Assembly (NCBI GenBank): GCA_030682405.1
Contig: JAUXOF010000082.1
Coordinates: 1,211-65,210, forward strand
DNA length: 64,000 bases
DNA from: Thermodesulfovibrionales bacterium
GTDB lineage: Bacteria > Nitrospirota > Thermodesulfovibrionia > Thermodesulfovibrionales > JdFR-86
Reading direction: 5' to 3'
Below the pieces are notes generated by a model. It made no database searches and had not been told where the DNA came from. It saw only the letters and a program-made list of their open reading frames with translations. Shown here piece by piece: positions 8,401 to 13,737 of this stretch. Numbering within the stretch: the stretch's first letter is position 1; every line of letters begins with the position of its first letter. Position numbers and translations under genes: made by a program.

Positions 8401-9183
8401 TCAGACTATTTTATCCCTGAGGCCACTGAGGAATCTCCTCAGCTCCTCCTCAGGCTCGCTAAGCCTCTTTACTATTGCGCTCCCTACGATGACGCCGTCT
8501 GCAAGCGCAGCCACTGCCTTTGCCTCCTCAGGGCTTCCCACCCCGAACCCGACGGCTACGTGCGTCTTGGTAAGGCCGCGCACGCGGGATATGGATTCAG
8601 CCACAGACTCCTCAAGAAGAAGCCTTGCCCCTGTAATCCCGGTTATTGAAACATAGTATATAAAACCCCTCGATGATTTTGCCACTTTTTTTATCCTCTC
8701 AGGCGTGGAGGTGGGGGCAAGCATGAATATCGTGTCCACCCTGTGCTTCCTCGCAACCGGGATGAGGCTTCCGGCCTCGTCAGGCGGAAGGTCGGGTATT
8801 ATCAGGCCGTCCACCCCTGCCTCTGATGCGTCCCTTATAAACGCCTCCTCGCCGTACTTAAAGACCGGATTATAGTAAGTCATTAAGACTATGGGGATTT
8901 TTGAGAAAAGCCGTATCTCCCTTACGAGGGACACTACCTTGCGGAGCGTGACCCCGTTAGCAAGCGCCCTTTCTGCGGCCCTCTGTATGACAGGGCCGTC
9001 GGCAACCGGGTCTGTGAACGGGACCCCAAGCTCGATAATGTCCGCGCCGCACTCCTCAAGAACTTTAATAAGCCCCTTAGTCCTTTCTACGGACGGATCC
9101 CCGGCCATTATGTAAGGTATGAATGCCTTCCGGCCCTGCTTTTTAAGGTTGTTAAATGTTTTTGAGATGTTTGACATCGGCAT
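8401..9183 (-). CDS. trpA: Tryptophan synthase alpha chain
   Basis: 260 aa. Typical TrpA motifs (ELGVPFTDPVADGPVIQ, GFIYYVSITGITG). Confidence 0.9.
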   Translation of the reverse strand: MPMSNISKTFNNLKKQGRKAFIPYIMAGDPSVERTKGLIKVLEECGADIIELGVPFTDPVADGPVIQRAAERALANGVTLRKVVSLVREIRLFSKIPIVLMTYYNPVFKYGEEAFIRDASEAGVDGLIIPDLPPDEAGSLIPVARKHRVDTIFMLAPTSTPERIKKVAKSSRGFIYYVSITGITGARLLLEESVAESISRVRGLTKTHVAVGFGVGSPEEAKAVAALADGVIVGSAIVKRLSEPEEELRRFLSGLRDKIV

Positions 9184-9186
9184 CCA

Positions 9187-10035
9187 TTAAATATGCAACC
9201 GTTTAATAAATTCCTCATGCTTTGTTGTTAAAATAATTTGATTAACTGGATATATCCTATCATTGAATTTGACCTTTACAAGCCAATTGTCCTGATCAAA
9301 TTCGTTTTTAACCTCTGCATATTCAAATTGTCTATGACAATTAGGACACACAACTAAAAGATTTTTCGGATTGTTAGAAAGAAGAGGGTTAATATGATGA
9401 ACTTCAAAATATGGCTCGTTATCTTTTTTAAGAAACCAGAATTCACAAACTTGGCAATGACCTTGATAAATATCACCTAACAAAACCCTTAAATTGTTAG
9501 GCACGCTCTCCTTTGCTTGATTTGAGCGTCTATTTACATAGCGTCTTACCTCTGTTGGTAAGGTATCAACCAGACGAACATATTCGTTGAGAACAACTTG
9601 GCTTCTGTCAATACTTGCCCATTTTGAAAGCTTTAAAATTTCTTCCTTTGCTGAAACGTCATTTTCTGAACTATCAAGACTCTCTTGGAGTTCATGGGTT
9701 TTCAATATGTATTTACTCTCAGGTATTAATCTATAAATAAAATGTTTTTTATCCACCAATTGAACAACAATTTCATCGCCATCTTTAATCTTATTGCGTC
9801 TAAACCATTCCGCCATACCGCCAATTCTGCATTCTCTGGTTTTACTCTCATAAGAAGAATACTTCTTACTTTCAGGGGTGATAGAGTCATCCAAATAAAT
9901 TTGAATTCGAGCATTATGCTCAGGAAACCATTTTATCAAAGATATGGGTATCGCTATTAAGCCCTTATTGATACGGCTTTGCGTTATTTTGATTGTTGCA
10001 TAATTATAGTTAATTGGACTTTTGACTTTAATCAT
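9187..10035 (-). CDS. HNH endonuclease domain protein with N-terminal beta-rich putative DNA-binding domain
   Basis: C-terminal HNH/zinc motif CQVCEFWF...FEVHHINPLLSNNPKNLLVVCPNCHRQFE. AT-rich. Start overlaps the stop of the upstream 55-aa ORF (TAATG). Confidence 0.75.
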   Translation of the reverse strand: MIKVKSPINYNYATIKITQSRINKGLIAIPISLIKWFPEHNARIQIYLDDSITPESKKYSSYESKTRECRIGGMAEWFRRNKIKDGDEIVVQLVDKKHFIYRLIPESKYILKTHELQESLDSSENDVSAKEEILKLSKWASIDRSQVVLNEYVRLVDTLPTEVRRYVNRRSNQAKESVPNNLRVLLGDIYQGHCQVCEFWFLKKDNEPYFEVHHINPLLSNNPKNLLVVCPNCHRQFEYAEVKNEFDQDNWLVKVKFNDRIYPVNQIILTTKHEEFIKRLHI

Positions 10036-10202
10036 TAATCAGGCATTACCTCGTCGCAATCTTTCCATTCTTCTAAAGAGTTTAATATTTGATTATCATC
10101 TATTGGCAAGCTTTTCGCTTTTTCGTATGCAGATTCTTCATCTGCCGCATCTACTTCATAAGAACAAAAACCGGAAAAATATTTCCTCACAATGTATTTC
10201 AT
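10035..10202 (-). CDS. Small acidic protein (55 aa), below the ORF-track cutoff
   Basis: Hand translation: MKYIVRKYFSGFCSYEVDAADEESAYEKAKSLPIDDNQILNSLEEWKDCDEVMPD. ATGA overlap with the upstream gene and TAATG overlap with the downstream HNH gene. Confidence 0.4.
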   Translation of the reverse strand: MKYIVRKYFSGFCSYEVDAADEESAYEKAKSLPIDDNQILNSLEEWKDCDEVMPD

Positions 10203-10816
10203 ATTTCACCTTTGAGGTGGTCAACTTTTGAGTAATAGCTATTTGTGATAGGCGTATTCCCCATGATGATAATCGGTAGTTTTGACGCTTTAGAGCTTGA
10301 GACTCTTATATTTATGCTTTTGCCGATTGCCTTGAGCATTGAATCAGAACGTAAAAGGCCGGGATTCCCTTGATGAGTTCTATAGTCACCAATACAGACT
10401 AATGACTTACTCTTTTGCCGTTCCCAATTCCAGACGATAGACATTTTGACTTCAATTATCGCTGATATGTCTTCTGGATTTTGATTGATATTATTTTGTT
10501 TAGATATAACTACATCGGCAGGAGACATATTAGACAGAGCAATCTCATTACAAATAGCGCCCTTAACTGCGAATAACCCCATATCTTTTACAATCGCCTG
10601 AATTAAGTCAGTAGTCCATTTTTCTGTGAAACTTCCAATTAAAGCATTTCTGCTTTGCAGAGTGCTTTTTTTACCATCATAACCTTTGGGCCAGTAAGCC
10701 AGATACTTGCCAGAGTCAGTGACATAAAATAACTGTTCCGGCGTTGCAAACCGAGTTGACTCTTCAAGGAACTTTTGCTCAACTTGTTTGTTCCACAGTT
10801 TTTCCATTTGAGCCAT
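10199..10816 (-). CDS. Hypothetical protein, candidate PD-(D/E)XK nuclease
   Basis: 205 aa, AT-rich. Candidate motif SPADVVIS ... AIIEVKMS (D-Xn-E-X-K). First gene of a 3-gene coupled cassette between trpB and trpA. Confidence 0.4.
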   Translation of the reverse strand: MAQMEKLWNKQVEQKFLEESTRFATPEQLFYVTDSGKYLAYWPKGYDGKKSTLQSRNALIGSFTEKWTTDLIQAIVKDMGLFAVKGAICNEIALSNMSPADVVISKQNNINQNPEDISAIIEVKMSIVWNWERQKSKSLVCIGDYRTHQGNPGLLRSDSMLKAIGKSINIRVSSSKASKLPIIIMGNTPITNSYYSKVDHLKGEI

Positions 10817-10865
10817 TTTACCCTTTTATTAGCCGAATATGGAAGGTGTTCATTCGATCATCCCC

Positions 10866-12041
10866 TTATAATTCCATCCCCTTAATCCGGGCAACGTGCT
10901 CCACGTCCTTGTCCCCGCGGCCAGAGAGGTTTATGATTATGATTTTATCCTTCGGGAGCGCAGGGGCGAGCTTTGCCGCCTCTGCCACTGCATGGGCGGA
11001 CTCAAGAGCAGGGATTATGCCCTCTGTGCGGGATAAAAGCTCAAATGCAGAGAGGGCCTCGTCATCAGTGGCATATGTGTACCGCACCCTTCCCGTGTCT
11101 TTAAGATATGAATGCTCCGGCCCGACTGAGGCGTAATCAAGCCCTGCCGAGACCGAGTGCGTGCCGAGGACATTTCCGTCTGCGTCTTGAAGGAGATAGC
11201 TCTTTGTGCCCTGAAGCACGCCTACCGAGCCTCCGGCAAAGCGCGCCGCATGCTCGCCGCTTTCTATGCCCCTTCCTCCTGCCTCCACCCCTGTCATCTC
11301 AACGGCATCGTCCAAAAACTCGTAAAAAAGCCCTATGGAGTTGCTCCCGCCGCCAACGCAGGCTATGAGATAATCCGGAAGCCTGCCCTCTGCGCGGAAT
11401 ATCTGTTTTTTGGCCTCCCTGCCTATTACGGATTGAAAGTCCCTTACGAGGGACGGAAAAGGGTGGGGGCCAAAGACAGTGCCTAAAACATAGTGTGTGG
11501 TGCGGACATTTGTTGTCCAGTCGCGGAGGGCCTCGTTTATCGCATCCTTAAGCGTCCTTGAGCCTATGTCCACTTCCCTGACATCCGCGCCCAACAGCCT
11601 CATCCTGACGACATTCAGGGCCTGCCTCTTTACGTCCTCCGTACCCATGTATATGACGCACTCCAGCCCGCAAAGAGCGGCCCCTGTTGCAGTTGCAACG
11701 CCGTGCTGGCCCGCGCCTGTTTCGGCGATTATTCTTTTTTTGCCCATCTTTTTTGCAAGAAGGGACTGTCCGAGCGCGTTATTGATTTTATGAGCGCCTG
11801 TGTGCGCGAGGTCTTCGCGCTTAAGATATATCTTTGCCCCGGCCAAGTTCTCGGTAAGCCTTTTTGCGTGATAAAGCGGGGTGGGCCTTCCTATGTATGT
11901 CTTTTGGAGATGGGTAAGCTCCTCCTGAAAATCCTTGTCGCGCTTGGAGTTAAGATACGCCTCCTCAAGCTCCGCAAGTGCGGGCATGAGGGTCTCCGGC
12001 ACGAACCTGCCGCCGTACTGGCCGAAATAGCCTTTTTTCAT
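10866..12041 (-). CDS. trpB: Tryptophan synthase beta chain
   Basis: 391 aa. PLP-lysine region [24 protein letters not shown] loop. Confidence 0.92.
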
Positions 12042-12123: not shown

Positions 12124-12363
12124 CTATTTCCTGAATTTTTTACTAATGCCTGTTATTGTTAACCCAACTACTTTTTTGCCTCGGAGTCTCAGAAATACAC
12201 CATTTTCTAATATATCCGTATCAGTTGCCCTTTGAGGACGCTCTAAACTAATATACAGGACATCAGCTTCTTCATCGAAATCAAACCACAGGTGTTTTGC
12301 ACCTACTTTTTTGATATGAGGCAATGCCTCAAATATCTCCTTTATTGCTGTGGTTGCTGCCAT
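12124..12363 (-). CDS. DUF2283-like small protein (putative antitoxin-like partner)
   Basis: 79 aa. Pattern DVLYISLERP...GLTI is typical of DUF2283. Overlaps the upstream 107-aa ORF. Confidence 0.55.
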   Translation of the reverse strand: MAATTAIKEIFEALPHIKKVGAKHLWFDFDEEADVLYISLERPQRATDTDILENGVFLRLRGKKVVGLTITGISKKFRK

Positions 12364-12665
12364 ACTATTTTCCTCCCTTTCGAAAGTTTCTTTATCTTTG
12401 TAGTGACAAACGCTGTGATAATGAAACCGTCTTTCTGTTCTTTCATCTCTTTATAAATTACAAGAAATGCCTTTCTTTGAGAGATAAGTTTTACCGCCCA
12501 GAGATCATCCACATCTCCTTCAATCACCCATGTAGGGCTTGAAACAGCCTCCAAAATATCATAATAGTATCCTGCCATATCATCGTGATTTTCTACAATA
12601 TGACGCCACCTTTCACCTGTTAAGCGAATCGGGACATTATTGACCGATAATGCAAAATCAGTCAT
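12342..12665 (-). CDS. Hypothetical protein, possible BECR-type toxin partner of the DUF2283 protein
   Basis: 107 aa. RWRHIVENHDDM histidine-rich segment. Gene-pair architecture only. Confidence 0.3.
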   Translation of the reverse strand: MTDFALSVNNVPIRLTGERWRHIVENHDDMAGYYYDILEAVSSPTWVIEGDVDDLWAVKLISQRKAFLVIYKEMKEQKDGFIITAFVTTKIKKLSKGRKIVWQQPQQ

Positions 12666-12979: not shown

Positions 12980-13282
12980 ATGCCGTCGCTTAAGGAAAAG
13001 CCGTTGTCCGTCGAGATAAAGGCGAGGGGGCAGGTTACCATTCCAAAAAAGCTGAGGGACAGATTCCACCTGACCGAAGGCACGGAGCTTGCCATCATCC
13101 CGATAGGAGAAGCGCTGCTCCTTGCGTCAAGGCCGCTGCCTCTTGAAGAGGCCCGGAGGAGGCTTAAACAACTCATGAAGGACTCCGGCCTTACCCCTGA
13201 AGAACTCATGAGAGAGTTGTCAAGGGATAGGGAAAAGCTGGCCGCGGAACTTTACGGCAAAGGGCTTTACGGAAAGGGTTGA
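12980..13282 (+). CDS. AbrB/MazE/SpoVT-type antitoxin
   Basis: SpoVT-AbrB signature IKARGQVTIPKKLRDRFHLTEGTELAI. Stop overlaps the start of the PIN gene. Confidence 0.75.
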   Translation: MPSLKEKPLSVEIKARGQVTIPKKLRDRFHLTEGTELAIIPIGEALLLASRPLPLEEARRRLKQLMKDSGLTPEELMRELSRDREKLAAELYGKGLYGKG

Positions 13283-13737
13283 TGCCCCTCAAGGTATATC
13301 TCGACACGAACGTCATCATCTCCGGGCTGCTATCCGAGGAAGGCCCGCCGAGAATCATACTGGATATCCTTTCCCTCTCTCTCCCCGAGTTAAAGGGCGT
13401 GACAGGGGAATTCAACATGCTTGAGCTTAAGGCAAATATAAAGAAAAAACTGCCAAGGCTTGAGAAGCCCTTTTTTGATGCGGCAAAAAAGCTGAACCTT
13501 GAGATAGTCGGTCTTCCGGAAAGCGAGGCGGTAAGCAGGCTGAAAGAGATAATCGCTTTTAAAGACGCGCCTGTCTTGGCCTCGGCGCTTGGCGCGGGGT
13601 GCGATTACCTGATAACCGGGGACAAGCATTTTAGGGCCGAGGGAGTTAAAAAAGCCGGGCTTAAGATAAAAATCGTCTCCCCGGCAGAGTTCGTTGAGGA
13701 AGTGCTGCCGCGGGCGCTTAAAGCGGGGCTTGGTTAG
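13279..13737 (+). CDS. PIN-domain toxin (VapC-like)
   Basis: 152 aa. N-terminal VYLDTNVIISGL, C-terminal DYLITGDKHF. Coupled to the AbrB-type antitoxin. Confidence 0.75.
   Translation: MMPLKVYLDTNVIISGLLSEEGPPRIILDILSLSLPELKGVTGEFNMLELKANIKKKLPRLEKPFFDAAKKLNLEIVGLPESEAVSRLKEIIAFKDAPVLASALGAGCDYLITGDKHFRAEGVKKAGLKIKIVSPAEFVEEVLPRALKAGLG

Follow-up and report, generated by a model that had tools for sequence, protein, structure and literature searches.

Background

Stand-alone HNH homing genes of T4-like phages occupy short gaps between conserved, co-transcribed genes that jointly serve a single enzyme or pathway, as mobE does between nrdA and nrdB. They are present or absent at the same site in related genomes, and their genealogies are uncoupled from those of their flanks, in which identity decays with distance as expected from co-conversion; the 'intronless homing' of T4-like phages is the precedent for such behaviour (PMC2790892). 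Type II restriction-modification (R-M) units have likewise been described as mobile elements inserted into operon-like gene clusters (Furuta, Abe and Kobayashi 2010, PMC2853133). Here we analyse a 64-kb stretch of a Thermodesulfovibrionales metagenome-assembled genome (contig JAUXOF010000082.1), called the window throughout, in which about 1.68 kb of foreign DNA separate the tryptophan synthase genes trpB and trpA. This insert is very probably composite. It would have started as an R-M unit, into whose restriction/methyltransferase (R/M) junction a cassette of two genes was placed, one for a 55-amino-acid (aa) protein and one for a 282-aa HNH endonuclease with a B3-like DNA-binding domain (B3-HNH); the R-M unit then decayed and the cassette remained as the selected unit. 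The locus is thus a variant of two known kinds of element, free-standing HNH genes of the homing type and mobile R-M units located in operons.

All three traits of the phage genes recur here: the stand-alone HNH gene in a short gap between co-transcribed genes, the presence/absence polymorphism at one site and the uncoupled genealogy with distance-dependent flank identity. Unlike them, our element is hosted by a bacterial chromosome and no viral relatives were found; its DNA-binding module is B3-like and not of the I-HmuI or I-TevI type; it replaced about 480 bp of an R-M junction instead of inserting cleanly; it has a small companion open reading frame (ORF); and its cleavage and homing are predictions from sequence. 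With the mobile R-M units it shares a compact unit placed at a gene boundary in an operon-like structure whose flanking genes are intact, the left boundary lying about 11-16 nt before the R start and being common to copies at unrelated sites. In contrast to those units, R is truncated here, M is gone, and no flanking target duplication was detected.

Two groups of restriction enzymes are the nearest comparators of the B3-HNH protein. The B3-like enzymes (BfiI, the EcoRII N-terminal domain, LlaJI.R1 and NgoAVII) also have an N-terminal pseudobarrel fused to a non-specific nuclease domain, but here the catalytic partner is an HNH domain of the McrA/TagI clade instead of a phospholipase D (PLD) domain, a PD-(D/E)XK domain or an AAA+ motor, and there is no dependence on a linked methyltransferase (MTase). 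The McrA-type type IV HNH enzymes (EcoKMcrA, 6ghc; TagI, 6ghs; ScoMcrA, 5zmm) are by sequence the closest matches of the HNH core. They too consist of a reader domain followed by a C-terminal HNH domain, and their genes are usually solitary; the reader of our protein is however not of the SRA, SBD or McrA N-terminal type, and some of its copies adjoin an apparently intact MTase. To our knowledge no B3-HNH enzyme has been characterised. Our literature search returned nothing directly matching B3-HNH enzymes or homing endonucleases inside R-M systems, and we could not find a description of either the architecture or the apparent targeting of R/M junctions.

An insert within the tryptophan operon

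The window trpB is 75-84% identical to trpB of related Nitrospirota. Between it and trpA lie three ORFs, all on the strand of the trp genes. The features of the region are as follows.

10866-12041, minus strand: trpB (tryptophan synthase beta), Pfam PALP PF00291, E-value 6.6e-39; upstream border of the insert
10817-10865, minus strand: spacer of 49 nt from the trpB stop to the first ATG of the remnant; its last ~11-16 nt are common to other copies of the R-M unit
10199-10816, minus strand: R', restriction-endonuclease-like remnant covering residues 1 to ~199 of 288; 205 aa, likely start at 10807
10207-10211, minus strand: left cassette junction, from blastn break points and the end of homology to intact R genes
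10035-10202, minus strand: acidic ORF of 55 aa, first cassette gene; its start overlaps the R' stop (ATGA)
9187-10035, minus strand: B3-HNH endonuclease of 282 aa, second cassette gene; PF01844, E-value 2.6e-6
9721-10002, minus strand: B3-like DNA-binding pseudobarrel (residues ~12-105), from Foldseek against the PDB
9316-9468, minus strand: HNH/zinc core (C194-x2-C197, H213-H214, N225, C230-x2-C233-H234), from Pfam, PDB match and conservation
9185-9189, minus strand: TAATG at the right end of homology to sister loci, combining the HNH stop and the vestigial start of the lost MTase remnant
8401-9183, minus strand: trpA (tryptophan synthase alpha), Pfam Trp_syntA PF00290, E-value 1.1e-93

The three ORFs are chained by an ATGA and then a TAATG stop/start overlap, and only 3 nt separate the final stop codon from the first trpA ATG. 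The alternative trpA starts, 9183 and 9177, are both compatible with the alignment of relatives and place trpA 3-9 nt past the HNH stop. GC content falls from 0.52-0.58 in the flanks to 0.30-0.40 in the insert, the ORFs having about 35% GC. To establish the usual state of the junction, 80 genomes of related Nitrospirota/Thermodesulfovibrionales were fetched via trpA, 62 of which carry both trpB and trpA. The two genes overlap (GTGA) or lie no more than ~30 nt apart in about 50 of these 62. Because trpB and trpA are normally coupled in this way, the 1.7-kb stretch is an insertion, and in relatives with an empty site it is the GTGA overlap that couples trpA to trpB. An earlier note on this DNA, made from the letters alone, had described an AT-rich, same-strand cassette with these coordinates and trpB/trpA borders, these overlaps and this 3-nt gap, and had proposed looking for an empty site. 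ORF and Pfam analysis, the GC drop and the junction, which is empty in most relatives, agree with it on each of these points.

No terminator-like sites were found on the minus strand from trpB to trpA, and no promoter or terminator of its own is evident for the cassette. Transcription presumably enters the insert from trpB by read-through. Since trpA begins only 3-9 nt beyond the HNH stop, it must be transcribed through the insert, and its translation is probably coupled to that of HNH. Read-through together with this coupling entrenches the insert.

A cassette in place of an R/M junction

The first ORF of the insert has more than 3000 homologues, nearly all of 288-289 aa. It is 84-87% identical to their first ~198 residues, diverges after ...SKVDHLK and terminates in a cassette-derived G-E-I-stop. 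R' of L007 has this GEI-stop ending too, and in L005 the junction sequence is present out of frame (loci are given by our L numbers). Homologues and the NCBI record begin the gene at the second ATG, 10807, so that the 205-aa gene of the earlier note stands as an ORF and is more likely a 202-aa gene. The intact 288-aa gene always precedes an overlapping N6/N4-type MTase gene (N6_N4, 309-314 aa), which was observed for two different alleles at different genomic sites; because of this arrangement we read the pair as a type II R-M unit. Within the 205/288-aa family the motif P96-A-D98...E119-V-K121 is invariant and falls on consecutive predicted strands, which is compatible with a PD-(D/E)XK fold. 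The AlphaFold2 (AF2) model was poor, with a predicted local distance difference test (pLDDT) value of 47.6, and gave no meaningful Foldseek match; no Pfam, NCBIfam, PADLOC or PDB profile matched the 205-aa protein. The D...EVK motif on which the 'PD-(D/E)XK-like protein' of the earlier note was founded is thus real, but the window does not encode the full-length product, since the protein is a C-terminally shortened form of the 288-aa one. The window gene lacks its last ~90 codons and has no MTase, whereas the intact form elsewhere has both components of a type II R-M system.

The limits of the unit and of the cassette were located by comparison with other loci. Blastn homology to L001, L004, L005 and L007 begins at window positions 10822-10827, and the shared last ~11-16 nt of the spacer after trpB mark the left boundary of the R-M unit. 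The left end of the unit in the trpB-trpA junction can thus be read from the alignments, while its right end we infer. Identity to loci with a cassette rises abruptly at 10207-10211, from 76-78% in R' to 95-97% in the cassette. Window homology to sister loci spans 10827 to 9184/9185, after which trpA follows. In L005 and L089 the TAATG at which homology ends starts an MTase of 249-250 aa, so the MTase remnant of the window was deleted down to its start codon.

Sister loci have the order R remnant, small ORF, HNH, MTase. In L004 and L005, the MTase after HNH corresponds to the intact MTase minus its first ~53-72 residues. Compared with the intact unit, the break points of all loci of the 288-aa type fall within residues 192-200 of R and 53-77 of M, and the cassette takes the place of the R 3' end and the M 5' end, about 480 bp of the R-M junction. 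Occupied and intact alleles both occur in metagenome ERZ1286166; the cassette is thus present or absent at one homologous site, and its junctions there are identical. The comparison of intact with occupied units shows, at the level of sequence, that the cassette replaced the R/M junction. No MTase homologue was detected anywhere in the 64-kb window. As the sister loci that combine the cassette with a restriction remnant also carry an MTase or MTase fragment downstream, its absence from the window is a secondary loss. The statement of the earlier note that no MTase is present is therefore correct for the 64 kb, but does not describe a design feature of the system.

The B3-HNH endonuclease

The 282-aa ORF has 491 homologues. 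Its match to the HNH family PF01844 lies above the family cut-off and places it in the HNH superfamily. The eight residues C194, C197, H213, H214, N225, C230, C233 and H234 show no substitution in any of the 75 intact relatives, so that the HNH/zinc motif first noticed by eye is well founded. The best PDB sequence match was Escherichia coli McrA (6ghc, 5e-7). The core is nearest to McrA, TagI and ScoMcrA, and matched the PADLOC type IV model mREase_IV at 2e-7; no PADLOC system model matched beyond the HNH domain.

The AF2 model of the protein has a pLDDT of 84.7, rising to about 90 over residues 12-105. Comparison of this predicted model using Foldseek identified a B3-like fold in its N-terminal part, with matches to FUS3 (6j9b, 3e-5), the LlaJI.R1 N-terminal domain (6c5d, 4e-4) and the BfiI C-terminal domain (3zi5, 0.05). 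Several B3 domains reached a Foldseek probability of 1.00, with E-values of 3e-5 to 1e-3 and target-normalised template modelling (TM) scores of 0.55-0.68. The Pfam B3 sequence match was weak (0.097). The beta-rich N-terminal domain of the earlier note is thereby given an identity as a B3-like DNA-binding fold. The order of domains is B3-like pseudobarrel, helical linker, McrA-type HNH core and small C-terminal beta domain. On this model, the protein is predicted to be an enzyme of the 'recognition domain + nuclease domain' kind. The ratio of non-synonymous to synonymous substitution rates (dN/dS) of HNH is 0.1-0.35, including loci without MTase, and its GC content is 0.32-0.41 in hosts of 0.41-0.58 GC.

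The small ORF upstream of the endonuclease

The 55-aa ORF is kept in 13 loci, and its dN/dS is 0.05-0.2 in most of the pairs compared; two near-identical pairs gave values of 0.4-0.7, which derive from very few changes. Among called proteins it has 18 homologues, several of them on contigs that match in size those of HNH matches. It was found only beside the HNH lineage of the window type, and matched nothing in Pfam, NCBIfam or PADLOC. Its conservation and the purifying selection on it argue that the 55-aa ORF, which the earlier note had translated by hand, is a real protein; the many homologues of the two longer ORFs mark these, too, as true genes. In sister lineages the place of the 55-aa ORF is taken by a 75-aa zinc-ribbon ORF to which it is unrelated. 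Homology between the two small ORFs was considered and rejected (hhalign probability of 0.5%). At L153 (212-617), ORFs of the 55-aa type and of the zinc-ribbon type stand in tandem upstream of HNH, and this arrangement may represent a transition from one type of cassette to the other.

Intact HNH genes between decaying flanks

We examined 80 metagenomic loci and five others. HNH was full length in essentially all of them, 75 of 76 being intact, in a locus search that was seeded on catalytic-motif peptides and favours intact HNH genes. Two types of upstream sequence were found. In the first, a fragment of the 288-aa gene of 65, 97, 158 or ~195-200 aa, frameshifted in L094, precedes the 55-aa ORF. 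In the second, the 75-aa zinc-ribbon ORF is preceded by part of a restriction gene of the ThaI family (PF15514, 4e-49, matching positions 1-106 of 203 of the profile), which is unrelated to the 288-aa gene, so that a second R family is shortened likewise. Downstream, the MTase remnant keeps TSPPY (motif IV) and motif I in about 7 loci, has TSPPY mutated to PMFSY or LMFSY in 4, has lost the motif IV region in 11, and is absent in most of the remaining loci, many of which are on short contigs. The four mutated loci (L106, L108, L113 and L114) keep an MTase frame of ~240 aa; these could be dead enzymes that are as yet undeleted, or proteins reused otherwise. Because HNH remains intact while both remnants decay, the three ORFs do not work as a triad, and HNH is independent of the adjacent MTase.

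Further sister cassettes were found at the proB-proA, leuC-leuD and ispG-dxr junctions and before proS. L119 (before proA) still has an MTase remnant and L148 (leuC-leuD) still has a ThaI remnant, which suggests that the R-M unit was a vehicle into operon junctions and was later eroded. One lineage (L142/L143, 2151-6568) has a larger island at the leuC-leuD junction, made up of a 236-aa HTH protein, a 591-aa HATPase_c_3 protein, the zinc-ribbon ORF, HNH and a 239-aa DUF6946 protein; this island may be a multi-gene defence or selfish cluster.

A cassette history uncoupled from its flanks

The window, L005 and L169 have near-identical cassettes at three different sites, namely trpB-trpA, ilvD/ilvBN and beside an Fe-S protein gene. 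Between the window and L005, the cassette is 95.3% identical in nucleotides (HNH synonymous divergence, dS, of 0.13) and R' is 76-77% identical. Between the window and L169 these values are 97.5% and 78%, with a sharp break at ~10207-10211. The pattern is reversed between L005 and L094, where R' is 95% identical and the dS of HNH is 1.7. In L098, L100 and L110 the cassettes are 97-100% identical, R' identity declines from 0.98 at the junction to 0.82-0.9 distally, and the sequence beyond the R-M unit is unrelated. At the proB-proA junction of five closely related genomes, the dS of HNH is 0.06-0.23 against 0.37-0.61 for proB and 0.55-0.90 for proA, and third-position identity is 0.93 for HNH against 0.69 for proB. 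Gene conversion that carries adjoining flank along would leave such gradients of identity and contrasts in dS, although ordinary recombination gives the same pattern.

Between remnants, the dN/dS of R' is low. In one pair, however, the dS of R' is 0.41 and that of the cassette 0.05; because most divergence predates the entry of the cassette, low R' values are uninformative. The dN/dS of restriction remnants was consequently rejected as a test of function, R' dS being far above cassette dS in the same pairs.

Weighing of the explanations

The composite origin can be set out in steps. A small type II R-M unit, made of a 288-aa R gene and an overlapping N6/N4 MTase gene, would sit or once have sat in the trpB-trpA junction. 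The cassette of the 55-aa and B3-HNH genes would then have displaced the last ~90 codons of R and the first ~53-72 codons of M. This replacement would kill R and at first leave a translatable MTase, which we infer to be the only safe order of disarming. No longer needed, both remnants would decay; the window still has ~200 aa of R', and M' would have been deleted to its start codon. The small ORF and HNH would be the selected part, being intact, of low GC in every host and uncoupled in genealogy from their flanks. As to how the cassette spreads, the B3 domain is predicted to read a site in cassette-free alleles, at which HNH would cut; an allele with the cassette would then serve as repair template, so that the cassette is copied into the cut allele and neighbouring flank is co-converted. 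We give this endonuclease-driven step slightly less than an even chance. For the whole reading, that of a selfish cassette spread by recombination, with a homing-like endonuclease, which sits in a decaying R-M unit and rides the trp operon, we put the chances for and against about level. A selfish homing-type element is also the best fit among the three readings that the earlier note had proposed, the others being a type IV-like restriction module and a toxin-immunity module. More tentatively, since we think it rather less likely to be true than false, the cassette could represent a hitherto undescribed class of chromosomal homing elements, parasites of R-M units, that have R/M junctions of type II units as their natural target, would disable R while sparing M for a time, and outlive the unit in junctions of coupled biosynthetic genes (trpB-trpA, proB-proA, leuC-leuD).

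Several observations weigh against a selfish homing cassette. Ordinary homologous recombination with selection for a useful gene could produce the identity gradients with no endonuclease drive required. The 75 intact HNH genes out of 76, and purifying selection on HNH over dS values of up to 0.8 within one locus type, indicate a conservation more lasting than purely parasitic homing genes usually show, although the motif-seeded locus search favours intact genes. At the leuC-leuD loci, HNH dS equals or exceeds flank dS; a cassette younger than its flanks is therefore not universal, and the decoupling runs both ways. No relatives of HNH were found in the phage and plasmid collections IMG/VR, INPHARED and PLSDB. 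A target-site duplication was sought between the spacer after trpB and the trpA start, where the local alignment score of 16 was reached by 33% of shuffles, and was rejected. Finally, the identity of the 288-aa family as a restriction enzyme is read only from its gene context and motif.

The same lasting purifying selection would be expected if the small ORF and B3-HNH formed a solitary defence nuclease that benefits its host, either type IV-like or sequence-specific with restraint by the small protein. Horizontal turnover in hot spots of defence and selfish genes would then explain its distribution, R-M wrecks and operon junctions being merely where such genes pile up. The relationship of the HNH core to McrA, TagI, ScoMcrA and mREase_IV speaks for this view, as do the absence of a neighbouring MTase from most loci, a usual trait of type IV enzymes, the neighbours (HEPN/MNT, the set of HTH, HATPase_c_3 and DUF6946 proteins, RNase H) and the toxin-antitoxin (TA) and MTase cargo that the trpB-trpA junction holds in other genomes. 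We nevertheless consider it unlikely. The B3-like domain is not a known reader of modified bases: the B3-like folds of BfiI, EcoRII and LlaJI.R1 recognise DNA without modification. In about 7 loci an apparently intact MTase gene follows HNH immediately and is coupled to it, an arrangement that would harm its own carrier if HNH read that methyl mark. A defence role also leaves unexplained the recurrent R/M replacement at the same site in two unrelated R families, and beyond the HNH domain PADLOC offered no defence system. Those loci with an adjoining MTase could instead be taken to mean that B3-HNH is an ordinary type II enzyme, swapped in for R and using the downstream MTase, the window being protected by an MTase of the same specificity elsewhere. 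HNH is indeed immediately upstream of an MTase with motifs IV and I, with a TAATG overlap in L005, L089 and L169; its recognition and cleavage domains follow the known layout of restriction enzymes; one source labels a homologue 'predicted HNH restriction endonuclease'; and the 249-aa MTase may be complete, the core common to other family models starting at about residue 65. This is the rival weakened most, and in our view improbable, by the many HNH genes that are intact beside dead or missing MTases: the MTase is without TSPPY, shortened or absent in at least 15 clear cases, as well as in most other loci, some of them on short contigs, and in the window, which holds no homologous MTase in its 64 kb. 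The copies in proB-proA, beside leuC, in ispG-dxr and at proS are likewise without an MTase within the sequenced flanks.

The remaining two explanations give the small ORF or the first protein a necessary part. A TA-like addiction pair, in which the acidic 55-aa protein would inhibit the nuclease and loss of the pair would kill the cell, could explain why the pair persists within essential operons and would account for a small, strongly acidic protein that is co-inherited with HNH and encoded by an ORF upstream of and translationally coupled to the nuclease, as is the order of many type II TA pairs; HEPN/MNT pairs occur at the same junction in other genomes and further TA-like pairs flank trpB in the window. 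Against the always-linked cognate antitoxin of type II TA systems, however, we found two unrelated small-ORF families, and neither was detected upstream of HNH in several loci, e.g. L135 and L152; no TA family model of Pfam, NCBIfam or PADLOC was matched. We judge this explanation a shade less probable still than a swapped type II enzyme. The one to which we give least credence, and which the variable truncation of the first protein already largely refutes, takes all three proteins for a new methylase-free restriction or immunity system with two nucleases and an inhibitor. The earlier note had entertained such a system and had suggested that the recurrence of the trio be checked. The overlaps that chain the ORFs speak for it, and the trio does recur: a remnant of ~200 aa, the small ORF and HNH stand together in L004, L098, L100 and L110, and L099 has the same order with a shorter remnant, so that there are at least five further loci; dN/dS between remnants is low. 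What recurs is however an R-M wreck with a cassette and not a functional triad, as all five loci keep an MTase or MTase fragment. R' is a variable remnant, shortened from 288 aa and in sister loci further shortened or frameshifted while the two genes after it are unaffected; divergence before the cassette entered accounts for its low dN/dS; and the 55-aa ORF can be replaced by the zinc-ribbon ORF. A single three-component system is thus not what the comparison yields.

Neighbouring cargo

Unknown genes between trpB and trpA have been reported earlier (PMC2395257). In our set of genomes the junction also holds other cargo, at L025 (2092-3909), L046 (3018-3771), L027 (2211-3996) and L081 (2803-4004). 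It comprises HEPN and MNT pairs; an N6/N4-type methyltransferase of 506 aa that is accompanied by a 93-aa ORF; a shortened copy of this methyltransferase with a 246-aa protein without identified function; and a FkbM-like methyltransferase. Most of this cargo begins with ATGA or GTGA overlapping the trpB stop. The trpB-trpA junction is a recurrent landing site for selfish cargo.

In the window, an AT-rich patch (GC 0.37-0.39) lies directly upstream of trpB at 12124-12665 on the minus strand and 12980-13737 on the plus strand. It contains a 79-aa DUF2283 protein whose gene overlaps an ORF of 107 aa, a Cys-rich ORF of 76 aa, and a pair of a MazE/AbrB-type antitoxin and a PIN-domain protein, with gyrB beyond. 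The trpBA genes are thus bordered on both sides by addiction-type modules.

Outside 9184-10865, the window contains 13 GATC against 178 expected and 4 CTAG against 75 expected. This strong avoidance suggests long exposure to GATC-specific restriction. ThaI-family enzymes cut CGCG; avoidance of CGCG was considered as a sign of ThaI-type restriction and rejected, the observed/expected ratio of 0.87 in the window being uninformative. At L004 (4083-5949), the unit with the cassette is followed downstream by another N6_N4 methyltransferase, of 269 aa, which overlaps a 357-aa protein without family match; the two are probably another type II R-M pair.

Implications

Even on a conservative view, the locus matters for annotation: '205-aa nuclease' and 'methylase-free two-nuclease system' would both be wrong calls, the locus being an R-M wreck with a mobile cassette. 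If homing is true, selfish endonuclease genes would prey on chromosomal R-M units, disarming R first and M later, and this would add a new layer to the conflicts among mobile defence genes. B3-HNH would then join the programmable-looking enzymes built from a recognition domain and a nuclease domain. Junctions of coupled housekeeping genes would, for their part, be refuges for selfish genes, clean deletion from them being hard.

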